A DNA stretch of 36,007 bases. Source: a virus. Under the pieces are notes generated by a model. That model did not search any database and was not told the origin of the DNA. It was given only the letters and a program-made list of their open reading frames with translations. Positions 1-31,976 of this stretch are shown here, one piece after another (within the stretch, counting starts at the first letter, position 1; each line of letters starts with the position of its first letter). The stretch lies in the UHGV virus genome UHGV-0135626, one strand, 5' to 3'. A program made the position numbers and the translations under genes.

Positions 1-94
1 ACAGTATCCGACCTTAGTTATCAATTGAAAAGCCTACAAATATCGTTCAGCCAATCAAGAAATTTTTTCAGCCGGAGGTGTGTACTTCAAAAAA

Positions 95-136
95 TGTGAT
101 GAATGTCACATGCAGGTGCTCTCATACACCTGCATG
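95..136 (-). terminator. Tandem stem-loops downstream of the minus-strand operon; candidate terminator
   Basis: 10-bp inverted repeat CATGCAGGTG (109-118) / CACCTGCATG (127-136) a few nt after the stop of the 144-710 gene. Second palindrome TGTGA-N6-TCACA (95-110) is followed on the minus strand by a run of six U (89-94). Confidence 0.4.
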
Positions 137-143
137 TAGACTA

Positions 144-710
144 TTAATCATTCAATAATCTATATTTTCTTTTGATTAAATCTTCACCTTTTTTGGTGAA
201 CACAAAACCAAATTGCGATTTTTTGTTCAGCCTAAGGACTCTGTTATCCAACGCATCGGTTGATGGAATCAATGTTTGATCATCTATCCAATTAAGTAGC
301 GTAAGAAAGTTCAGCAGCCTCAACGTTGTTGTGCGAAGCTCTTTCGATATATTTTCAATGCTGGCAATTCGTCTTTCTTTTTTCTCAGGTGGTACAGATA
401 ATTGTTCTTGAGGTTTCGTGGGTAGATAATCAATTTCGTTTGCTGAATCGAATGATATGTGTGGCGTAATTTTGCTAAAAAAGCCTTTCGCTGACTCACT
501 TGATAATAAACCAGACCTATTCATATCGTTTGTTATTCTGTACAGGAGTGGACTGTGTTTCATTTCAGGATAACGTTGATAAAAGTTAAGCAATTCAAAA
601 GCAGCATTAGCACCAACAAGAAAATCAGAAGGATCGCTGACTTTCCAGAAAGAATGATTTTTCTTAGCGCCAGTGGTGTCAACAAATGATAATTCTTTTA
701 ACCAACTCAT
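144..710 (-). CDS. Hypothetical protein, about 188 aa, last gene of the helicase operon
   Basis: ORF track 144-743. Start moved to the internal ATG at 710 (MSWLKEL...), which has a strong SD (AAAGGAG, 6-nt spacer); the ATG at 743 has none. No recognisable motif. Confidence 0.55.
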   Translation of the reverse strand: MSWLKELSFVDTTGAKKNHSFWKVSDPSDFLVGANAAFELLNFYQRYPEMKHSPLLYRITNDMNRSGLLSSESAKGFFSKITPHISFDSANEIDYLPTKPQEQLSVPPEKKERRIASIENISKELRTTTLRLLNFLTLLNWIDDQTLIPSTDALDNRVLRLNKKSQFGFVFTKKGEDLIKRKYRLLND

Positions 711-775
711 GATGTGCTCCTTTCTAACAAGTGAGCACATCATAGAATTAGTAGATAGGGGGTAAATATGAAATG

Positions 776-1054
776 TTACGGCAACCTGCTCAGTATTTCC
801 TCTAGATCTTTTTTTGTCATATTGGAGTTCTCATAGATGCGCATGATTTTCTCACGCGTCTTAGCGGAAACCCCAACGGCAGATGTGACTTTGTCAAATT
901 CAGCCATAGTCATCGTCTCCAGAATGGCATTGATAACTTCAGCCTTAGACATCTTGATTTTTTTCTCTTTGAGTTTTATTTGAAATTTTCCAAGTTTTTC
1001 ATTGGCCTTATCAGACAATGCCACTTGGCAATAAGTTGTTTTCTTTTCGCTCAT
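776..1054 (-). CDS. Small hypothetical protein, 92 aa, possibly DNA-binding
   Basis: Complete ORF starting 2 nt after the helicase stop, same strand. Lys-rich; no clear catalytic motif. Confidence 0.55.
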   Translation of the reverse strand: MSEKKTTYCQVALSDKANEKLGKFQIKLKEKKIKMSKAEVINAILETMTMAEFDKVTSAVGVSAKTREKIMRIYENSNMTKKDLEEILSRLP

Positions 1055-1056
1055 AA

Positions 1057-2616
1057 CTAATCTCGTTTCAGAACTCCAAAATCGAATGCTCCATCAATAG
1101 GCAATACACCTTCTGCAAAGCCAGGTGTGGTGTCGATGATGTGTTTTCGCTCATAAGAGTGAGACAACAGGTATTTGTTGCTAATGTCAATGAAATCAGT
1201 GATAAAACACACGTTTGCCTGATTCTTCTTGGCTCGTAAGCCACGACCGACACGCTGTCTCATTTCAACTTCTGCTTTCCCACCACCAGCAAGAATGACC
1301 GCGCCCACACTTGGCACATCAACACCGACATCCAGAATAGTCGAGCCTATTAAAACATCTATTTCGCCAGACGCTAAACTGTTCAGCTTTGCTTGCCTTG
1401 TCGTCTGGTTAGATTCCCCATAGATGAAATCAACTCTAAGACCTGACTCCTTCATCATCTCCATCAGGATTTGCCCGTGGCGTTTAAGACGAACCAGAGT
1501 CATGCAGTTGAGTGAATGTTGCTTATAAAGCAATGCCTCGCGCACTATGGCCTCGTTACGTCCCAAATTATACACGATCCCCAACTGATAAGCCTTTTGG
1601 TAGGCGGTGCTCATACCAACTCTAAAATTGAGGTGTTTGTTGGCAAGTTCGGCCTTGATTCTGGCCTCGTCTGGCTTGTAGGCAACTTTATGATAAAGGA
1701 AGTACGGCTTTGCCAGAATGCCTCGATCAATCAGGTACTTTTCTGTGACTTTAATTTCAATTCGCCCGGCCACCGCCATCAGGCGCATGTTGGCTTCCGT
1801 CGAATCCTTCATGAACGGCGTGGCTGTAAGCGCCAGACGATAGTCTGCGTTCACACATAATCTGGCGATGTCATAGAAATTTGAGCCTGAAGACTCATGC
1901 GCCTCTTCCAGAATAAGAAGAGAGACACTTGAAAGGAAGCGTTTCACCAACTCCCGACGTTTGAGGTGGTAGCTTTTCTTATCTGGTGTTGCATCGCGTG
2001 GTGGTTCTTCGAGGAAACTTGCAAGAGTTTGAACTGTAGCGACGTTGATATGTCGTGATACCTGGAACTCACCCGAGCCAATGACTCCAACCTTTTGGTC
2101 TTTTAACCACGGTTCGCCATTTTCGGCGCGGTAGTCGATGGATCTCTGGAAGTTTTCGGCCATTTGAAACATCAGAACAGAGCGGGTTGTTAAAAATAAT
2201 GTCATTCGACCGATACGTGCAGCTGCTTTGCAGGCAACGTTAGATTTCCCACCACCAGTAGCGATCTGGGCAATCATCATTCCCTCGCGAACTAGTGTTT
2301 CCACAGCCTGATCCTGATATGCATAATCAGGATTGTATGGGAATGGGTTAACCGCCGGATTTGGCTTTCCAAGCGCCGGGGCTTTGTCTTTGCGGATATG
2401 AACACATTTGATGCCCGACTTGTTCAAGTTCGCCGCTACAGGCTTGGCAAAGCCAGCAGGGAACGAGTTTTTACTCCAGTTGAACATCGTGCTTGTGCCC
2501 TTCCAGTCGCCAGTCTCGACTTCGTAGCTCAACATTTGCTGCACCAGTTGCTTTACCTTGTCATCTGCGCCAGAAATAAGCGCATTTACTGCGTTAGATA
2601 CAATCCGAACAGTCAT
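1057..2616 (-). CDS. Superfamily 2 DEAD/DEAH-box helicase (ResIII/UvsW-like)
   Basis: 519-aa ORF with Walker A IATGGGKSN, motif II LILEEAHE, motif III LTATP, motif VI QRVGRGLR. A small gene directly downstream recalls the T4 uvsW/uvsW.1 arrangement (analogy only). Confidence 0.85.
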   Translation of the reverse strand: MTVRIVSNAVNALISGADDKVKQLVQQMLSYEVETGDWKGTSTMFNWSKNSFPAGFAKPVAANLNKSGIKCVHIRKDKAPALGKPNPAVNPFPYNPDYAYQDQAVETLVREGMMIAQIATGGGKSNVACKAAARIGRMTLFLTTRSVLMFQMAENFQRSIDYRAENGEPWLKDQKVGVIGSGEFQVSRHINVATVQTLASFLEEPPRDATPDKKSYHLKRRELVKRFLSSVSLLILEEAHESSGSNFYDIARLCVNADYRLALTATPFMKDSTEANMRLMAVAGRIEIKVTEKYLIDRGILAKPYFLYHKVAYKPDEARIKAELANKHLNFRVGMSTAYQKAYQLGIVYNLGRNEAIVREALLYKQHSLNCMTLVRLKRHGQILMEMMKESGLRVDFIYGESNQTTRQAKLNSLASGEIDVLIGSTILDVGVDVPSVGAVILAGGGKAEVEMRQRVGRGLRAKKNQANVCFITDFIDISNKYLLSHSYERKHIIDTTPGFAEGVLPIDGAFDFGVLKRD

Positions 2617-2657
2617 AAACCTCTTTCCTTAGTGCCTTTTGTATGTTATTTGGCTAT

Positions 2658-2680
2658 TATAATAAGTAAGTGATTACTTA
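2658..2680 (+). promoter_or_regulatory. Candidate promoter/operator: consensus -10 hexamer abutting a palindrome
   Basis: Perfect TATAAT at 2658-2663, then TAAGTAA-gtga-TTACTTA (7-bp arms, 2663-2680) ending at the first codon of the ParB-like operon. The -35 element is weak. Confidence 0.35.
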
Positions 2681-3379
2681 GTGTATTGTAGCAATAAAAT
2701 GGATGTAAAAATCACGATTTTGCAGGTTGATGTTGCCAACCTTCGCCCGAATACCTGGAACACCAATTCGGTTGGTGCGCAGAATTTTGAAAAACTGAAA
2801 GGTTCTATCGAAAAATTGGGCTTTTTTAAGCCAATTTTGGCTCGTGAACTTGAAGATGGATTTTTTGAAATCCTCGGCGGCGAACATCGCTGGCGTGCCG
2901 CTATTGAGCAAGGAATTTCAACGGTTCCAGTGCTTTCTGTGGGCAAAATTAGCGATGTCGTAGCTAAACAGATGTCACTGGTGGACAACGAGCGATACGG
3001 TGAAGACGACCAAATCGCATTGCAACGCTTCATTGAAGAAATTCAGTCAGAACTTGACTATCAACTGTCTGAAATCGCCCCGTATGACGACGAAATCTCG
3101 ATGGTTTTAGCAAAAGAGGCGGCAATCGACCTTGAAGCACTGGAGGCGTTGTCTCGTGGTAGTGATGAGCCTGTCGATACCGACAAACGAGAGAAAACCG
3201 AACGTGTGGGTGCGGAACATCAGACCATGCGCTTCAAAGTAACTTTCGATGCGTCAGATCGTGTTGCAGAAACCATAAAAAACATCATCAAAGAGCAGGC
3301 TATTAACACCGGTAATGAAATGGAGAACGCTGGTGAGGCTCTGGTGTGGCTGGTCGACTACTACAAGGAGCGTATGTAA
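2681..3379 (+). CDS. ParB/Srx-like nuclease-domain protein, copy 1
   Basis: ORF begins with GTG at 2681 (alternative ATG at 2699); neither has a strong SD. ParB N-terminal box FEILGGEHRWRAAIEQG; acidic C-terminal half. Stop overlaps the next start (TAATG at 3377-3381). Confidence 0.75.
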   Translation: MYCSNKMDVKITILQVDVANLRPNTWNTNSVGAQNFEKLKGSIEKLGFFKPILARELEDGFFEILGGEHRWRAAIEQGISTVPVLSVGKISDVVAKQMSLVDNERYGEDDQIALQRFIEEIQSELDYQLSEIAPYDDEISMVLAKEAAIDLEALEALSRGSDEPVDTDKREKTERVGAEHQTMRFKVTFDASDRVAETIKNIIKEQAINTGNEMENAGEALVWLVDYYKERM

Positions 3380-4047
3380 TGACCAAAAAGTTTGAAATCG
3401 TATATCGCGACCCGGCAGATCTTATTCCCTATGAGATGAATGCCAAAAAGCATGATGAACAGCAGATCAGAGATCTGGCCGCAGCCATTAAAAAGCGCGG
3501 ATTTGACCAGCCAATTACGGTCGATAAGAACGACGTAATTATTACTGGTCATGGCCGCCGTGAGGCTGCAATTTTTGCTGGACTTGAGCGCGTACCGGTT
3601 ATTGTTCGCGATGATCTCAGTGATGACGAGGTTCGTGCGAAGCGCCTTGAAGATAACCGACTTGCCAGCATTGATTACGATGCAATTAAGCTACAGAAAG
3701 AGCTTGAGTCGCTTGTTCTGGACGATATCGAGGTTTTCGGCTTTGAAGAGCGTGAGTTGAATGTTCTCGTTGGCAGTATGACAGAAGAAATGGACACCGA
3801 CTCGCTAGTTATCGATCTTGGCGAAGAAACTAAACGACAGAAGGATGAACACACCGAGATCAGTCGTGAAGTTGCAGCGGAAGAAGTACGTGTTGTCGAC
3901 GTATTGGGCTTTAAAACGCTTCCTGCTGGCTCTGCCATTGTTGTTGGTGATTTGCTTGCCCACATGGAAGAAATGACGGGAGAAAGCGGGGTAGACGCAT
4001 TTGTGGCATATGCGGAGAAGATCTCTTCCGGGGAGATGGCTGCATGA
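3379..4047 (+). CDS. ParB/Srx-like nuclease-domain protein, copy 2
   Basis: Start taken at ATG 3379 (MTKKFEIV), overlapping the upstream stop; the track ORF begins at 3346. ParB box IITGHGRREAAIFAG; acidic C-terminal region. Confidence 0.75.
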   Translation: MTKKFEIVYRDPADLIPYEMNAKKHDEQQIRDLAAAIKKRGFDQPITVDKNDVIITGHGRREAAIFAGLERVPVIVRDDLSDDEVRAKRLEDNRLASIDYDAIKLQKELESLVLDDIEVFGFEERELNVLVGSMTEEMDTDSLVIDLGEETKRQKDEHTEISREVAAEEVRVVDVLGFKTLPAGSAIVVGDLLAHMEEMTGESGVDAFVAYAEKISSGEMAA

Positions 4048-4709
4048 GCAAATACATCATCAACGTATCGTTTCAGACACGCGTAAATAAAACCACGCGC
4101 ACGTTGGAAATCGCTGAGTCGTTCGGGCTTGGTCTGGACGAAAAAGAGTGGACGCTTTACGACAATCTGGAGCTGGAAGTGAAGCAGGGCGATGTGGTGT
4201 ACATCACCGGCCAATCCGGTTCCGGCAAATCCGTTGTGCTGCGCGAGTTGCAACGACAGATGAAGGATGAAGGGTTGTCTGTAGCCTCCATCGATGATTT
4301 TACCTTCGATAATGAGGTTAACGTCATCGATCAGTTGGGCAAAACGACCAGTGATGCGCTTGGGTTGTTATCTATGGCTGGTCTGAACGATGCATATCTG
4401 TTTGTTCGCAAGCCTTCTGAAATGTCAGACGGTCAGAAATATCGTCTCAAGATTGCCAAACTGATTGAGTCAGGCGCTAAAGTGTGGGCTGCTGACGAGT
4501 TCGGTGCTGTTTTAGACCGTGTAACCGCTCAGGTTGTGGCATCTAACCTCCAGCGTGTCGCTCGAAAGGTTGGTGCGACGGTAATGGTGGCGACGACTCA
4601 CGAAGACCTGAAGAACGCGCTGCGCCCGGATATGCAGATCACCAAGCACTACAAAGAACGCGTGAAGGTGGAATATCACAATGGCAGTCATGATGAGGTC
4701 CATTCATGA
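4044..4709 (+). CDS. Stand-alone ABC-type ATPase, nucleotide-binding domain only
   Basis: 221 aa. Walker A GQSGSGKS, signature-like SDGQKYRL, Walker B VWAADEF, H-loop TTHED. SD GGGGAG 8 nt upstream; ATGA overlap with both neighbours. No membrane domain or partner. Confidence 0.8.
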   Translation: MSKYIINVSFQTRVNKTTRTLEIAESFGLGLDEKEWTLYDNLELEVKQGDVVYITGQSGSGKSVVLRELQRQMKDEGLSVASIDDFTFDNEVNVIDQLGKTTSDALGLLSMAGLNDAYLFVRKPSEMSDGQKYRLKIAKLIESGAKVWAADEFGAVLDRVTAQVVASNLQRVARKVGATVMVATTHEDLKNALRPDMQITKHYKERVKVEYHNGSHDEVHS

Positions 4710-5596
4710 CGGACATCATCATTAAACGCTACCGCCCTGAAGAGTTTCCGCGTCATCTGGACTTTCTGGAGCGAATGACTGTCACAAAGGGAACTGTAGA
4801 GGACTGGCACGCTCTTAAGTCGCTTCACTACAAAACAGACGGCAAACCTTTCGCGCCAACTTACTATCGCTGCGAACTTGATGACCGTCTGGTGGGCGTC
4901 GTGGTTATGGCTTACCCGAAACTACTGTTGGCACCTCGCCACCGCATGTTTCCTAAGTTGAAACCAACCACTAATACCACCGTGGCTAACCAGTACTGGG
5001 GTCGGTACGTGAATAACAACTTTGCGGTGATCAGTCGCTCAGTTGTGGATACTCAGTATCGTGGCGTAGGCGTCTCTTATCGAATGATTAACCTGGTTAG
5101 CAGGATGCATGACCGGCCAATCATTGAGATCCAGTCCTCGATGAGCAAATACAATCCCTTCGCCATGAAAGCAGGGTTTAAGTTCATCCGCCCTGAGCGA
5201 CCGAAGAGCTATGAAAGTGCACTGCGTGTATTCCAGCGCCATTTCCGTTCCGACCCGGGTGATAACGAGGCGATCGTCAAAGAGTTGTTCGCAATGAGCG
5301 AGTCTCGTCGTCGCCGTGCACTGCGTGATCTGGTGGCGGACTACCACAAGAACAGTTCCCTGGCAAAAGCTGGGCGGAATCGTGGCACGACGATTCAGGA
5401 CATTGCCGACAGTCTGGTGGACGAGGCCAGCATTGTGAAGCTGCTCAAGGACATTCACAACCTGAGCTTTACGTCTCCGTTGTATGGTGTGTACCGAAAC
5501 CCTGACTTTGGCCGTCGACTGCCTGACACGCTGCCACTGCTGGCATTCGACAAACAACCTTTGGATAAACCGTTAGAAATTGCTTTACCGGCATAA
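4706..5596 (+). CDS. GNAT-like acyltransferase-domain protein with a C-terminal extension of about 120 aa
   Basis: 296 aa. GNAT acyl-CoA motif QYRGVGVSYRMI and downstream NPFAMKAGFKF. SD GAGG 7 nt upstream; ATGA overlap with the ABC ATPase stop. Confidence 0.6.
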   Translation: MTDIIIKRYRPEEFPRHLDFLERMTVTKGTVEDWHALKSLHYKTDGKPFAPTYYRCELDDRLVGVVVMAYPKLLLAPRHRMFPKLKPTTNTTVANQYWGRYVNNNFAVISRSVVDTQYRGVGVSYRMINLVSRMHDRPIIEIQSSMSKYNPFAMKAGFKFIRPERPKSYESALRVFQRHFRSDPGDNEAIVKELFAMSESRRRRALRDLVADYHKNSSLAKAGRNRGTTIQDIADSLVDEASIVKLLKDIHNLSFTSPLYGVYRNPDFGRRLPDTLPLLAFDKQPLDKPLEIALPA

Positions 5597-5605
5597 GGAT
5601 TTGCC

Positions 5606-5872
5606 ATGACGTTAACCGATAAACAAAAGGACATCATCAAAACGCTCAATCTCGGTTATGAGCGAGGTCATCTACTTGACCTGGACGAATTGCTTGAAGT
5701 TTTGCCGTACAAGACAACCAAGCAAAGTATCCAGTTCTCAATTCGCGCTCTGATAAAAAAGGGGCTGGTGGAGAAAGGGCATACGCGCCAACGCAGTGAC
5801 AATCGCTATCACCGCCGAACTCTTGGGTTAACCACTTTAGGTCGAGCCAAAGCGAAGTTACTGGTGATGTAA
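5606..5872 (+). CDS. Small basic protein, putative winged-helix DNA-binding regulator
   Basis: 88 aa, SD AAGGA 5 nt upstream, 9 nt after the GNAT gene stop. Basic C-terminus (RQRSDNRYHRRTLG); the helix-turn-helix assignment is pattern-level only. Confidence 0.5.
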   Translation: MTLTDKQKDIIKTLNLGYERGHLLDLDELLEVLPYKTTKQSIQFSIRALIKKGLVEKGHTRQRSDNRYHRRTLGLTTLGRAKAKLLVM

Positions 5873-5896
5873 TCGGTCTGGGAGCTTATTTAAAGA

Positions 5897-5951
5897 CCTG
5901 CTTCTGTATATATAAATAATAAGAAACTTATTAAATATATACGGAAGCAGG
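5897..5951. repeat. Long imperfect inverted repeat with an AT-rich interior
   Basis: CCTGCTTC (5897-5904) pairs with GAAGCAGG (5944-5951); the interior also pairs imperfectly (tgtatatat...atatatacg). Confidence 0.5.
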
Positions 5952-5990
5952 CTTAATAAGACATGCCCAGACCTAATTAAACACCCCAGA

Positions 5991-6059
5991 AAACAAGTTG
6001 GTTAGCAGATGCAGTAAACAAGTTGTTTTAGAGCGCATGGACGCGCTCTGTGTGTTTTA
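5991..6059 (+). promoter_or_regulatory. Repeat cluster upstream of terS; candidate regulatory or packaging-recognition region
   Basis: AAACAAGTTG twice (5991-6000, 6016-6025), the second forming the near-palindrome AAACAAgTTGTTT (6016-6028). GTTTTAGAG twice (6023-6031, 6051-6059) flanking hairpin AGAGCGC-atggac-GCGCTCT. No clean sigma70 -35/-10 found. Confidence 0.35.
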
Positions 6060-6068
6060 GAGGGATCT

Positions 6069-6701
6069 ATGACGGTCGAAAAAGACGAGGTAAAAACTCG
6101 CCTGACACCAGCGGAGTGGGCCGAAGCTGAAGCCAAATGGACGTCAGGCGAATATACACTCTCAAAGCTGGAGGAAGAGTACGGCATTCGTCGTGAAACA
6201 CTCTCCAGACATTTCAAAAAGCGAGGATTAGAGAAAGGCGCGGACTCTGTTGGGAAGATGGTTCGTGAGTCTCTTAAATCTGACGCAGAGCTTCGCGCTA
6301 AAGCCCGTGCGGAAAAGATAGAAGAACGTCGTACACGTTATGACGGCTGGGCGTATGCGTTGGGGCAGATGGTGATGGTCGAAGTCACTACGGCCAAACG
6401 TGAGGGTAAGCCTTTAGGGGCGATTGAGGATTCTCTCAAGAGCTTACAGAGAGCAAGTAATACCCTTGCAAAATGCTTTGAAGTTTCGTCCAAAGCATTG
6501 GGCATGGATCATGCGGAAAATGACGAGGAAGAAATTCCGAACCTGGTATTTGGTGAGCTTACGCCTTCCCAGGTGGCGAAATTACGTCAGGAAGACGACG
6601 AGCCTGAAATCATCGATGACGAATTGCTTGAGACGTTGGAAGAAGAAGCTCTAAGCGAATTTGATGCGACAGATGATGGAAGTGAAGGGGAGGACGAATA
6701 A
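6069..6701 (+). CDS. terS: Terminase small subunit
   Basis: 210 aa immediately upstream of terL with TAATG overlap. N-terminal HTH-like segment (YTLSKLEEEYGIRRETLSRHFKKRG) and a very acidic C-terminus. SD AGAGGGA. Confidence 0.65.
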   Translation: MTVEKDEVKTRLTPAEWAEAEAKWTSGEYTLSKLEEEYGIRRETLSRHFKKRGLEKGADSVGKMVRESLKSDAELRAKARAEKIEERRTRYDGWAYALGQMVMVEVTTAKREGKPLGAIEDSLKSLQRASNTLAKCFEVSSKALGMDHAENDEEEIPNLVFGELTPSQVAKLRQEDDEPEIIDDELLETLEEEALSEFDATDDGSEGEDE

Positions 6702-7957
6702 TGGCAATCCCGTCCTCGCTCAGTCTTGTGCAACTGCATTCTGGACAGATGAAAGTCTTCCAGTCTCCGCATCGATTTAAAGTTGTTTGTGCTGGTCGAC
6801 GCTGGGGAAAATCCCGGTTGTCGATCTCCACTATTATTCGTGCGGCGGCAAAGGAAAAAAAGCAAAGGGTCTGGTATGTCGCTCCTACTTACCAGATGGC
6901 TCGCCAGATTTTGTGGGACGATCTACAGGAAGTTCTGCCTCGTAAGTGGGTTAGGAAAAAGAACGACACCACGATGACAATCGTGTTGAAGAACGGTTCG
7001 GAGATCGCCCTCAAAGGTGCTGATAAGCCTGACACTCTGCGCGGCGTAGCGTTGCATTTTGTAGTGCTTGATGAATTTCAGGATATGAAGGCTGACACCT
7101 GGTACAAGGTGTTACGACCTACTCTTTCATCGACACGCGGCGGTGCACTGATCATTGGTACGCCAAAAGGCTTCTCGGAATTTCACAAACTGTGGACTAT
7201 AGGCCAGAACGTAGAGCTGCAAAGAAAGGGACAGTGGAAGAGCTGGCAGTTTGTAACTGCCGATTCTCCGTTTGTACCTACGGCGGAAATTGAAGCTGCT
7301 AAGAACGATATGGACCCGAAATCGTTCGCTCAGGAGTACCTGGCGAGCTTTGAGAACATGTCCGGGCGCGTTTACTACCCGTTCGATCGTAACGTGCATG
7401 TAAAACCGCTTCAGTTCAACCCTCGGTTGCCTATATGGGTAGGGCAGGACTTCAACATTGACCCGATGTCTTCAGTAATTTTGCAACCTCAGCCAAATGG
7501 TGAGCTATGGGCAATTGATGAATTGGTGCTCTTTTCCTCTAACACGGCAGAGGTTTGTGATGAGCTTGAGAGACGCTTCTGGCGCTGGAAATCACAGATA
7601 ACGGTATTTCCAGATCCGGCAGGTGCTTATCGCCAACATGCTCGCGGGGAGTCTGACGTCGACATATTCAAAGAGAAGGGATTCTTACGTGTCGATTATT
7701 CGAAAAAGCACCCGCCAATTGCGGATCGTGTTAATGCTGTTAACCGAATGCTGATGACCGCATCTGGAGATATCCGGCTGTATATCGATCCGAAGTGCAA
7801 GCATTTGATTGATTCACTGGAAAAAGTCATCTACAAGCCTGGAACACGAGATATGGATAAGACAGGTGGCATTGAGCATAGTGCAGACGCATTGGGCTAT
7901 CCAGTACATCGTAGGTATCCAGTCAAAAACCGTGTTATTCTTGGTGGTTCTCGATAG
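6701..7957 (+). CDS. terL: Terminase large subunit (ATPase and nuclease)
   Basis: 418 aa. Walker A-like VVCAGRRWGKS, Walker B HFVVLDEFQDM, acidic residues in the C-terminal half; sits directly upstream of the portal gene. Confidence 0.8.
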   Translation: MAIPSSLSLVQLHSGQMKVFQSPHRFKVVCAGRRWGKSRLSISTIIRAAAKEKKQRVWYVAPTYQMARQILWDDLQEVLPRKWVRKKNDTTMTIVLKNGSEIALKGADKPDTLRGVALHFVVLDEFQDMKADTWYKVLRPTLSSTRGGALIIGTPKGFSEFHKLWTIGQNVELQRKGQWKSWQFVTADSPFVPTAEIEAAKNDMDPKSFAQEYLASFENMSGRVYYPFDRNVHVKPLQFNPRLPIWVGQDFNIDPMSSVILQPQPNGELWAIDELVLFSSNTAEVCDELERRFWRWKSQITVFPDPAGAYRQHARGESDVDIFKEKGFLRVDYSKKHPPIADRVNAVNRMLMTASGDIRLYIDPKCKHLIDSLEKVIYKPGTRDMDKTGGIEHSADALGYPVHRRYPVKNRVILGGSR

Positions 7958-7983
7958 GTAAGTAATTATCTAAGGTTATTCAA

Positions 7984-9558
7984 ATGGAATTGAACGACAA
8001 ACAAATTAAGGATCTGGTGGCGCGACGCCACCCGGAATACGAAAAGAAAAAAGAACATTGGGACTTCCTCGCCAGCACTTACGCTGGCGGGCGTGGTTGG
8101 TTTACAGACAATATCTTTCGTTACTTTAAAGAGGGAGATCAGGAGTTTAAGGAGCGAGTTGAACGTGCTTATCGCTTCAACCACACTCGTGAGGTGGTAA
8201 ACCTCATCAACAAATATCTCTTTAAAGAAGACATTCATAGAAATATCGAAGAGGCACCAGAGCAGATCCGCAATTTCTGGAAACGTGCGACTCGCCAGAA
8301 TGCCTCTATTGACTCATTTATGGCCGCTATTGATTTGCAGTCGTCTATTTACGGTCGCATATGGGTTGTTGTCGATAGCACGATGAGTGGTGATGTTGAG
8401 TCAGTAGCTGACGAGAAAAAGAAAGATGCTCGCGCCTACGCCTACTGGATTTCACCTCAGCAAATGCTGGATGTGGCATGGGACGACGACGGGAATATGT
8501 TGTGGGCGTTAATTGTGGAAGTCGCTCGTGATGACGCAGATCCTTTTACTTCTACAGGTCAGGAATACCAACGTTATCGTCTGTGGACACAAAACGAGTG
8601 GTATCTGTTCCGTGAGGAAGTGAAGAAGGGCGCTGGTGGAGCAGGTCGCCGTCAGGCAAAAGTTATTTTAGAGGATAGCGGTGAGCATAATCTCGGCGTA
8701 GTTCCTGTGTTTCCTGTTGATTGTATTGGAGAAAGTGAATCACCGTATTTCAGCCCATCGTTGATCGATGATATCGCTTATCTTGATCGTGCGGTTGCAA
8801 ACTATCTGTCAAACCTTGATGCCATTATTCAGGATCAGACATTTAGCCAGTTGGCTATACCGGTACAGTCGCTTTTACCTGGTGATGAAAACCACACTAA
8901 AGTGCTTGAAATGGGCACAAAGCGAGTCTTCACCTACGATTCTGAAGGTGGAAACCAGCCGTTTTATCTGTCACCAGACCCGAAACAAGCTCAGATGATC
9001 ATCACTACGATTAAGACGGTGATTAACGAAATCTACCATTCAGTTGGTGTAGCTGGTGAGCGAACGAAGCAGGACAACGCACAGGGAATCGATAATTCAT
9101 CTGGTGCCGCAAAAATGTATGACTTCCAGCGTGTAAATAGCTTGCTTGTCACAAAAGCAGAGCGTCTGGAAAGGGCTGAACGCCAAATCATGCTACTGGT
9201 TGCGAAATGGATGGGGGTAGATCTGGACGAAGACCACTCTTTAATTGCGTATCCAGAAAGTTTCGATATTCGTGGCCTTACTGATGAATTTTCTGTTGCC
9301 GAGAAACTGTCATTACTTCAGGCACCGGACTCTGTACGTCGTCACCAGATGGAAATGCTTATTGAGAAGATTTTCCCGAACATTACTGAGGCGATGAAAA
9401 AGGAATTTGATAAAGATCTCTTGAATTTTCCTCCAAAAAATGATCTAAATACCCTTGAAAATAAGTCAGTACTTACTTATGATCGTGGTGCGGCCCAAGA
9501 AAGCGGGCAAGATCAACCCCGAGGGAATGGGGACTCATCTACTCAAGAGAACGAGTGA
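7984..9558 (+). CDS. Portal protein
   Basis: 524-aa ORF directly after terL, with an acidic and Gly-rich C-terminus; assigned by size and conserved gene order. Confidence 0.75.
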   Translation: MELNDKQIKDLVARRHPEYEKKKEHWDFLASTYAGGRGWFTDNIFRYFKEGDQEFKERVERAYRFNHTREVVNLINKYLFKEDIHRNIEEAPEQIRNFWKRATRQNASIDSFMAAIDLQSSIYGRIWVVVDSTMSGDVESVADEKKKDARAYAYWISPQQMLDVAWDDDGNMLWALIVEVARDDADPFTSTGQEYQRYRLWTQNEWYLFREEVKKGAGGAGRRQAKVILEDSGEHNLGVVPVFPVDCIGESESPYFSPSLIDDIAYLDRAVANYLSNLDAIIQDQTFSQLAIPVQSLLPGDENHTKVLEMGTKRVFTYDSEGGNQPFYLSPDPKQAQMIITTIKTVINEIYHSVGVAGERTKQDNAQGIDNSSGAAKMYDFQRVNSLLVTKAERLERAERQIMLLVAKWMGVDLDEDHSLIAYPESFDIRGLTDEFSVAEKLSLLQAPDSVRRHQMEMLIEKIFPNITEAMKKEFDKDLLNFPPKNDLNTLENKSVLTYDRGAAQESGQDQPRGNGDSSTQENE

Positions 9559-11368: not shown

Positions 11369-11400
11369 TCAGTGCAGTAGATAAGTAATTATCTATGTTA

Positions 11401-14947: not shown

Positions 14948-14956
14948 CTCAATTGG

Positions 14957-14970
14957 TAAGTATATACTTA
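14957..14970. promoter_or_regulatory. Perfect 14-bp palindrome TAAGTATATACTTA upstream of the major tail gene
   Basis: Exact self-complementary 14-mer in the 74-bp gap before the major tail protein start; same TAAGTA half-site as the other intergenic palindromes. Confidence 0.4.
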
Positions 14971-21436: not shown

Positions 21437-21518
21437 GCATCTGGATAAGTAAGTACTAATTTACTATCATTGTGGCGCTGACAGGATGTTAGCGCCTACT
21501 TATTTCAAGGATGAAACA

Positions 21519-27766: not shown

Positions 27767-27859
27767 TTGTGGAAAAAAATAATCATTTCTGTAAAAATAG
27801 GTAGGTACTAACTTAATGGTGGGCATGGAACGCCCACCATATCTAGGAGCAAAGGATAA

Positions 27860-31946: not shown

Positions 31947-31976
31947 TTTACAGATAGGTAAGTGCATACCTATATA
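31947..31976 (+). promoter_or_regulatory. Candidate sigma70-type promoter with an embedded operator palindrome
   Basis: -35-like TTTACA (31947-31952), 18-bp spacer, -10-like TATATA (31971-31976). The spacer holds the perfect inverted repeat ATAGGTA-agtgca-TACCTAT (31954-31973). Confidence 0.45.

Follow-up and report, generated by a model that had tools for sequence, protein, structure and literature searches.

By its DNA similarity, virus genome UHGV-0135626, of which we analysed a stretch of 36,007 nucleotides (nt; hereafter the window), is a phage-plasmid of the SSU5/pHCM2/pMT1 type. We consider it likely that its minus-strand locus at positions 144–2616 consists of a conserved pair, a UvsW-type helicase and a small ribbon-helix-helix (RHH)-like protein, followed by a lineage-restricted accessory gene. 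An earlier note, made by reading the letters without database searches, had described the locus as an operon of a superfamily 2 (SF2) helicase and two small proteins, and the three open reading frames (ORFs) behind that description are real and lie where it placed them:

1057–2616, minus strand: helicase gene, an ORF of 519 residues (aa).
776–1054, minus strand: 92-aa gene, its ATG 2 nt past the TAG stop of the helicase gene.
144–743, minus strand: third ORF as listed, 199 aa.
144–710, minus strand: 188-aa gene (phrog_13473), the third ORF read from its credible start, ATG 710.

The SSU5 supergroup of phage-plasmids has been described previously (Pfeifer et al., PMC7969092). Over its first 6 kb, the window shares 98% DNA identity with the Escherichia phages Cyrano, PhiR41_1 and CMS-2020a, 83% with Salmonella phage SSU5 and ~80% with Klebsiella SSU5-like elements. 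The Cyrano record labels the helicase gene “UvsW helicase” and the 92-aa and 188-aa ORFs hypothetical; SSU5 has the helicase and the 92-aa gene, with a lipoprotein and a repressor gene replacing the 188-aa gene. In a species-level genome scan, the helicase was found at 92% identity on ~100-kb contigs of Kluyvera, Buttiauxella and Yersinia pestis, also in Xenorhabdus, Morganella and Photobacterium, and at 39–47% identity in many Alpha-, Beta- and Gammaproteobacteria. A contig of Y. pestis NCTC5923 (108 kb, the size of pMT1) carries the 92% identical helicase and the 92-aa gene, followed by the SSU5-type lipoprotein-plus-repressor arrangement instead of the 188-aa gene. Phage-plasmids of the SSU5/pHCM2/pMT1 type occur widely in Salmonella Typhi, Shigella, Klebsiella, E. 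coli and Y. pestis, and carry resistance and defence genes. To our knowledge, their lytic replication and gene control are essentially unstudied, and our literature search found no paper on the helicase, the small proteins or the palindrome (see below) in SSU5-like elements.

Sequence comparison assigns the 519-aa protein to the UvsW family of SF2 helicases, as a new member of a known family whose counterpart in the sister genome already bears the UvsW label. Two regions can be distinguished:

2362–2616, minus strand: UvsW_N-like N-terminal domain, residues ~1–85 (family profile).
1138–2325, minus strand: helicase core, residues ~98–493 (Pfam ResIII, DEAD and Helicase_C).

A strong Shine-Dalgarno (SD) sequence, AAGGAAAGAGG, lies ahead of the helicase ATG at 2616. 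As a single sequence, the protein returned only the generic SF2 core from Pfam (ResIII, DEAD, Helicase_C); it matched phrog_16 (“DNA helicase”) with E = 1e-93, and its family comprises 1941 proteins at E ≤1e-5 among the candidates scored. The earlier statement that every SF2 core motif is in place was borne out by an alignment of 25 sequences: motifs I, II (DExH type), III, V and VI are all present, and GGGKS (residues 121–125), EEAH (237–240), TAT (264–266), GVDVP and QRxGRGLR (454–461) are invariant. Comparison of the family alignment with T4 UvsW by hhalign paired residues 14–488 with residues 14–458 at 99.6% probability (E = 7e-24), colinearly and with the N-terminal domain covered. Three relatives at ~48% identity score 27.9–34.2 bits against Pfam UvsW_N (PF21241), for which the gathering cut-off is 25.3, and the invariant WxG of this domain is kept in the window helicase.

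Several observations weigh against the UvsW assignment. Residues 1–115 of the window helicase, searched as a single sequence, have no UvsW_N match in Pfam, which agrees with the earlier description of ~115 N-terminal residues without a recognisable motif, a description that no longer holds at profile level. The window helicase is also without 9 residues of an Arg/aromatic loop kept in most relatives, and its best sequence matches in the PDB are to archaeal XPB (E = 5e-13), with T4 UvsW ranking fifth. The loop deletion, at residues ~33–47 (nt 2476–2520), is a property of the enteric lineage, that is, of this element, SSU5 and the Klebsiella relatives, and it may explain the missed direct match to UvsW_N. 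In T4 UvsW, this Arg/aromatic-rich loop has been proposed to be the part of the UvsW_N-type domain that binds DNA; as the window helicase lacks 9 of the loop residues, its DNA-binding specificity may differ from that of UvsW.

The similarity to XPB is one of branch and not of class. The window helicase falls in the XPB/UvsW-like branch of SF2, as do archaeal XPB/Rad25 and T5 D10, the latter a characterised UvsW/XPB-like phage branch-migration enzyme (PMC5180179). The NCBIfam equivalog repair_heli_XPB scored 52.3 bits against a cut-off of 610, and Pfam ERCC3_RAD25_C remained below threshold (22.2 against 27). The N-terminal domain aligns to UvsW and not to the XPB damage-recognition domain, and no Bax1-type nuclease partner was seen.

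The same database matches bear on a rival explanation, in which the helicase would power a system for restriction or anti-phage defence (type III Res-like, or DndH/PbeA-like) with the small proteins as its partners. ResIII is the top single-sequence match in Pfam, PADLOC PbeA (E = 5e-24) and NCBIfam dnd_restrict_1 (E = 7e-17) are also hit, and some relatives carry defence genes two genes downstream of the helicase (GmrSD with AAA_15, or MmeI). These scores, however, fall far under the family cut-offs (61.6 bits against 600 for dnd_restrict_1) and reflect the generic SF2 core only, to which the PbeA match is confined, while the N-terminal domain is of the UvsW type. Rather than variable cargo, the helicase is a universally conserved core gene with a fixed position beside the packaging genes in 129 loci, and the neighbours scanned include no nuclease, methylase or other Pbe/Dnd component. 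Its homologues in isolated phages are replication-module helicases of lytic phages: besides the SSU5-like phages, they occur in Rhizobium phages, where they are annotated “ATP-dependent RNA-DNA and DNA-DNA helicase” (the UvsW product name), and in Herelleviridae replication modules, one with the annotation “putative UvsW helicase.” We regard a defence motor as very improbable, and the reading as already largely refuted; the UvsW profile alignment and the missed curated defence thresholds group the helicase with replication and recombination enzymes, as the earlier note had presumed.

The likeness to T4 UvsW (PDB code 2OCA) comprises the full SF2 motif set, a UvsW_N-type domain, a profile alignment that is colinear over ~420 columns, a similar length (519 versus 502 aa) and a small ORF immediately downstream. 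The two proteins differ in that they share only ~23% identity and in the Arg/aromatic loop, which is 9 residues shorter in the enteric lineage. The genomic company is also similar. A T4-type recombination set accompanies the UvsW-type helicase, of which a gp32-like single-stranded DNA-binding protein (SSB; Pfam gp32, E = 2e-66) and a RecA/UvsX-type recombinase (Pfam RecA, E = 3e-36; intein-containing) are supported in the 98%-identical Cyrano. The Cyrano annotation further lists UvsY, SbcCD, RuvC, DnaB, primase, DNA polymerase III alpha and ligase; UvsY is annotated only, and Pfam did not confirm it. T4 is a virulent myovirus, whereas the host element of the window helicase is a temperate phage-plasmid. 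The UvsW class assignment would give a temperate plasmid-prophage a T4-style toolkit for recombination-dependent replication. The intein of the Cyrano RecA gene (positions 5065–7404 of its locus, L137) is of the LAGLIDADG type.

T4 UvsW and T5 D10 drive branch migration and the unwinding of forks and junctions (PMC5180179). By homology with these two enzymes, the window helicase would be an SF2 motor powered by ATP, with a DNA-binding N-terminal domain of the UvsW type, and most likely remodels branched DNA, its predicted reactions being fork regression, D-loop and R-loop unwinding, and Holliday-junction branch migration. Homology and genomic context suggest that it would work during lytic, recombination-dependent replication, with the element's gp32-like SSB, RecA-type recombinase, SbcCD-like nuclease and RuvC-like resolvase as putative partners. 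It may also remove branches ahead of packaging, since the helicase gene always stands back to back with a block of ParB-like, ABC-ATPase and terminase genes.

The second member of the pair, the 92-aa protein, is conserved, uncharacterised and probably of the RHH type, and it is not a homologue of T4 UvsW.1. It matches phrog_1466 with E = 1e-45. A word-index search with the protein returned close relatives only, and orthologues were gathered by synteny, as the small ORF downstream of the helicase in related loci. Nearly every locus has a same-strand ORF of 60–116 aa whose start falls within −3 to ~+115 nt of the helicase stop. A local iterative search ties the 92-aa protein to orthologues in Xenorhabdus, Morganella and Photobacterium, and hhalign connects the enteric group with a distant group (Vreelandella, Methylomicrobium, Acinetobacter, Magnetospirillum, Sphingomonas and others) at 96% probability (E = 2e-9, 83 columns). 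A family hidden Markov model recognised the ORF directly downstream of the helicase in 102 of 122 related loci and in every one of the 85 loci at ≥70% helicase identity. In some alphaproteobacterial relatives, the 92-aa type is replaced by an unrelated small ORF of the coiled-coil type (DPIHFFN...), the start of which often overlaps the helicase stop.

Within the protein, two halves can be recognised:

776–1054, minus strand: 92-aa protein (phrog_1466), with an RHH-like half at residues ~5–48 and a C-terminal helical half bearing a conserved end motif.

Residues 7–48 of the family align by hhalign to the RHH unit of CopG from pMV158 (87% probability, E = 4e-6) and to the RHH domain of ParG from TP228 (62%), and the aligned part of CopG is a complete strand-helix-helix unit. 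Profiles of Arc, Mnt and Omega gave no match; the reference sequences in all of these comparisons were entered by hand. Pfam ParG matched one of 16 family members (E = 1.7e-4), and no member reaches a Pfam RHH gathering score. An AlphaFold2 monomer, built on a shallow alignment of 9 close relatives, has a mean predicted local distance difference test (pLDDT) score of 66 and contains helices at residues 15–30 and 37–47, then three further helices, a secondary structure compatible with a strand-helix-helix unit plus three helices. Residues 1–10, the N-terminal strand segment, are unstructured and the beta-strand is absent from the model, as expected of an obligate dimer seen as a monomer. A Foldseek search of the model against the PDB yielded nothing at E <1. 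The RHH assignment thus has to be weighed against moderate profile scores, hand-entered references, a mediocre monomer model and the lack of a fold match, and we hold the fold with moderate confidence. The most conserved feature of the family lies elsewhere, in a C-terminal helix with an (M/L)(T/S)xE(D/Q)-hydrophobic motif. An extra C-terminal helical part is also present in Mnt of P22; unlike CopG, ParG, Mnt and Arc, the 92-aa protein is linked to a helicase and not to a partition ATPase or a toxin.

The earlier note had compared the gene order with uvsW/uvsW.1 of T4. The layout is indeed the same, but the proteins are not related: hhalign gave the 92-aa family a probability of 0.07% against UvsW.1, and the 92-aa protein is basic (pI 9.5) and RHH-like, whereas UvsW.1 is acidic (pI 4.2) and helical. 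The 92-aa protein could still be a functional analogue of UvsW.1, a non-DNA-binding accessory subunit that binds and modulates the helicase, with non-homologous proteins filling this role across lineages. A small ORF that starts within −3 to ~+115 nt of the helicase stop in almost all lineages, the different coiled-coil type in alphaproteobacterial relatives, and the layout shared with T4 all fit such a subunit, as does the extreme C-terminal helix, whose being the most conserved part is typical of a partner-binding peptide. Set against this are the lack of sequence similarity to UvsW.1, the opposite charge and the RHH-type similarity, which suggests DNA binding. We consider such a non-DNA-binding subunit possible, though doubtful; a DNA-binding adaptor role would fit both this proposal and the RHH reading that we prefer.

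According to the RHH reading, the 92-aa protein would be translated from the helicase mRNA, starting just past the helicase stop, and would most likely be a dimeric RHH DNA binder whose conserved C-terminal helix serves partner contact or oligomerisation. It could regulate the operon or serve the helicase as an accessory factor that targets it to DNA, and the family offers a conserved, tractable candidate for a helicase-targeting or regulatory factor.

The third gene is of another kind. We see the 188-aa gene as optional cargo whose translation is probably gated, and not as a core member of the operon. The ORF that the earlier note counted as part of the operon is present, but it is no conserved member of the operon, and its membership is uncertain: the 188-aa gene occupies this position in 29 of 129 loci, including those of Xenorhabdus and Morganella, in what is a variable slot. 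ATG 710 is preferred as the start since an AAGGAG SD lies 7 nt upstream; the protein read from it matches phrog_13473 end to end (1–188/188, E = 2e-131), and the upstream ATG of the third ORF is out of frame in a sister lineage. Only 11 cluster representatives of the protein were found among 1.84 billion proteins. Single sequences and the family profile gave no match in Pfam, NCBIfam, PADLOC or the PDB, apart from a weak HTH_45 match of one family member (E = 0.076). Structure prediction of the small proteins, which the earlier note had proposed, gave the helices described above for the 92-aa protein and an unusable model for the 188-aa protein (AlphaFold2 pLDDT 40). Its most conserved motifs (W141, P149 and TxKG at 172–175) lie in the C-terminal ~60 aa; a supposed likeness of this C-terminus to domains of the KilA-C/ANT type had no support in Pfam and was dropped. 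The homologue in Morganella and Xenorhabdus is ~22% identical (pairwise E = 6e-11). The ~212–216-aa downstream proteins of Vreelandella and Methylomicrobium and SSU5_120 were also considered as relatives and rejected, only the Morganella/Xenorhabdus protein being homologous.

The start of the 188-aa gene is embedded in two overlapping features:

703–750, minus strand: hairpin or DNA inverted repeat, GATGTGCTC-N13-GAGCACATC, which pairs the SD and AUG of the 188-aa gene.
766–761 and 744–739, minus strand: promoter-like site called by the promoter scan (−35 TTTACC and −10 TATGAT, respectively), overlapping the 5′ arm of the hairpin.

The hairpin folds with −24.5 kcal/mol (z = −6.8). The Morganella orthologue has a hairpin of other sequence and the same architecture (~7025–7065 of locus L006; −15.6 kcal/mol, z = −6.7). 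An Rfam search of positions 1–3000, the hairpin included, gave zero matches. By sequestering SD and AUG, the hairpin would gate translation of the 188-aa cargo gene. Positions 1–1000, which hold this gene and its flanks, have a G+C content of 0.37 compared with ~0.47 in the remaining window, consistent with recent acquisition of the 188-aa gene.

These features raise the question of whether the 92-aa RHH and 188-aa proteins could be partners of the type II toxin-antitoxin-like or abortive-infection kind. An RHH unit with a C-terminal helix is an architecture typical of antitoxins, the SD/AUG-sequestering hairpin resembles those of toxic genes, and the 188-aa gene is low in G+C, patchy in distribution and replaced by defence cargo in the same slot of relatives. 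The two genes, however, do not co-occur as a pair should (RHH ORF in 102 of 122 loci, 188-aa gene in 29 of 129), 65 nt and possibly a promoter of its own for the 188-aa gene lie between them, and no toxin family in Pfam, PADLOC or the PDB was matched. We judge such a pair to be improbable, and keep the reading of the 188-aa gene as optional cargo.

Other occupants of the cargo slot include the lipoprotein and repressor genes of SSU5. Two genes downstream of the helicase, the Morganella loci (8124–11054 of L005/L006) carry GmrSD_N and an AAA_15/21 ATPase, and the Vreelandella loci (8417–11143 of L007/L008) an MmeI-type enzyme.

The sole surprising element of the locus is a dispersed and deeply conserved palindrome family, one copy of which lies between the helicase gene and the divergent ParB-like genes. 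The earlier note had pointed to a palindromic candidate operator here. The palindrome is real and conserved, but it is a copy of a genome-wide family and not private to this region. The features of the divergent region, and the copies in the window, are as follows:

2663–2680, no strand assigned: 18-bp palindrome TAAGTAAGTGATTACTTA, with arms TAAGTAA and TTACTTA around gtga, in the divergent helicase/ParB control region.
2657–2662, plus strand: −10-like TATAAT directly beside the palindrome, a candidate promoter for the ParB-like operon (read from the sequence).
2685–2690, minus strand: −10-like TACAAT (ATTGTA on the plus strand) on the other side of the palindrome, candidate promoter of the helicase operon.
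2663–2680, 7955–7972, 9462–9479, 11378–11395, 14953–14970, 21446–21463, 27798–27815 and 31955–31972, no strand assigned: palindrome copies in the window, at least eight after relaxed matches were collapsed.

The palindrome at 2663–2680, whose arms are 7 bp long, was unreported by the repeat scan and was verified by direct reading and by a DNA pattern search. Its exact pattern recurs in the window at 14957, where 0.01 occurrences are expected; with ≤2 mismatches there are 13 matches against 0.96 expected, and with the other spacing 10 against 0.94, an enrichment of the family of ~13-fold over shuffles. The general form is ~TARGTAAGT-nn-TTAYYTA, as the 18-bp version or as a 14-bp variant, TAAGTATATACTTA, and the motif holds stop codons in three frames (TAAgTAAgTGA). 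The copy at 9462 is the only one in the window outside a short intergenic gap, and G+C-rich hairpins that resemble terminators follow several copies. In Cyrano, the exact pattern occurs 7 times where 0.1 occurrences are expected, always between genes, and the relaxed pattern has ~22 intergenic copies. Most of these relaxed copies lie 0–15 nt past a stop codon, and they occur among replication genes as well as structural genes. Palindromes of the recognisable form AAGTA...TACTT are kept in Xenorhabdus, Morganella, Vreelandella, Acinetobacter, Rhodocyclaceae, Chelativorans and Qipengyuania. The copy at 2663–2680 itself is kept in relatives down to ~40% helicase identity; in Qipengyuania (39% helicase identity), the 18-mer is identical to that of the window.

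An RNA-hairpin reading of the palindromes, suggested by seeming covariation of the arms and by G:T mismatches in three window copies (plus strand), was considered and is disfavoured. Among ~15 mismatched Cyrano copies, ~9 have G:T and 6 have A:C, which is no clear G:T-over-A:C bias in a comparison of low power, and the half-sites vary independently. A symmetric DNA site is, on this pattern, more likely than an RNA hairpin.

What binds such a site? RHH proteins commonly autoregulate, and with −10-like boxes of both divergent operons flanking the palindrome, 2663–2680 could be a dedicated operator through which the 92-aa protein controls the helicase operon. A private operator accords poorly with at least eight copies in the window and ~22 in Cyrano, mostly past stop codons of unrelated genes. 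The palindrome is also present in relatives that have no RHH-type ORF (loci L125 and L127), a finding that makes the 92-aa protein an unlikely binder and, in weighing our own reading of this protein, weakens its autoregulator part. In addition, lineages in which the motif is identical have different residues in the strand with which the RHH family is predicted to contact DNA. The 92-aa protein thus appears to be a poor candidate for the palindrome binder, and we think a dedicated RHH operator unlikely.

The binder could instead be the ParB-like pair, the ABC ATPase, an 88-aa winged-helix-like ORF or the helicase N-terminal domain. As a tentative proposal, in which our confidence is low, the palindrome would be the site of an ancient element-wide control or DNA-processing system, bound by a conserved core protein encoded alongside it, either the KorB-like ParB pair, the winged-helix protein or the double-wing N-terminal domain of the helicase. 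Were the helicase itself the binder, it would be a sequence-targeted branch-migration enzyme.

Among known systems, the nearest analogies may be the stoperators of mycobacteriophage cluster A and the KorB sites of plasmids. The OB sites of KorB in plasmid RK2 are dispersed in a comparable way. As with stoperators, many copies of a short motif are spread over the element, preferentially in short gaps between genes and close to stop codons, among early as well as late genes, with one in a divergent promoter region. Stoperators, the sites of the cluster A repressors (PMC9283540), are asymmetric 13-mers, whereas the motif of this element is an 18-bp (or 14-bp) palindrome. It also differs from immunity-type operators in its conservation across Alpha-, Beta- and Gammaproteobacterial relatives whose proteins are only ~40% identical, which is unusual. 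The palindrome family provides a handle on how these elements control ~100 kb of lytic genes; its interest would be general if it turned out to be a stoperator-like or KorB-like system or a site for helicase loading.

The divergence from a ParB-like operon, as claimed earlier, was confirmed. The block on the other side of the palindrome is:

2699–7957, plus strand: ParB_N, ParB_N, ABC-type ATPase, phrog_886 protein, 88-aa winged-helix-like ORF (5606–5872), TerS and TerL.

The ParB_N genes run divergent to the helicase in Morganella, Vreelandella and Methylomicrobium relatives as well, and the divergent ParB-ParB-ABC-...-terminase synteny is kept down to ~40% helicase identity. The ABC-type ATPase is the most conserved gene of the block, with 54–61% identity even in Alphaproteobacteria, and for the phrog_886 protein the Cyrano annotation gives an ABC-type ATPase in fusion with a predicted acetyltransferase. 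Packaging-linked DNA processing and KorB-like regulation are both possibilities for the function of the block. In the Methylomicrobium element, a Tad2-like (anti-Thoeris) gene is inserted inside the ParB/ABC block (2437–2727 of L009).

The first ParB-like gene has a conserved start at ATG 2699 (MDVKI), and one lineage has the upstream GTG at 2681 out of frame. With the ATG as start, the intergenic region measures 82 bp and not the 64 bp given earlier, a length that holds only for GTG 2681. On the ParB side, TATAAT or TATAGT is kept in relatives at the position of 2657–2662, a box that the promoter scan did not call. On the helicase side, ATTGTA or ATTATA is conserved in nearly all relatives at ≥70% identity, though the position is non-coding; here, the promoter scan called a neighbouring weaker site, TTTACA-18-TACACT. 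Together, the −10-like boxes and the palindrome persist in relatives at 70–99% helicase identity. From this arrangement, the helicase and ParB-like operons would start from overlapping divergent promoters whose −10 boxes flank the 18-bp palindrome, a reading that is tempered by the consensus-level nature of the promoter assignments. Both operons are probably under global, element-wide control, because the palindrome belongs to a genome-wide set.

Downstream of the 188-aa gene, a further repeat was read from the sequence:

108–137, no strand assigned: perfect inverted repeat with 11-bp arms, ACATGCAGGTG / CACCTGCATGT, and an 8-nt loop.

This repeat lies 6 nt past the stop of the 188-aa gene, between convergent genes, for which it is a possible terminator; the terminator scan missed it, because the T-run sits 14 nt from the stem. 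Finally, ~2 kb past the left end of the window, Cyrano encodes a “transcriptional regulator” (4305–4826 of L001) that is a full-length FljA-type “repressor of phase-1 flagellin” (Pfam Flag1_repress, E = 1e-80), which hints that the element may interfere with host flagellin expression through this protein.

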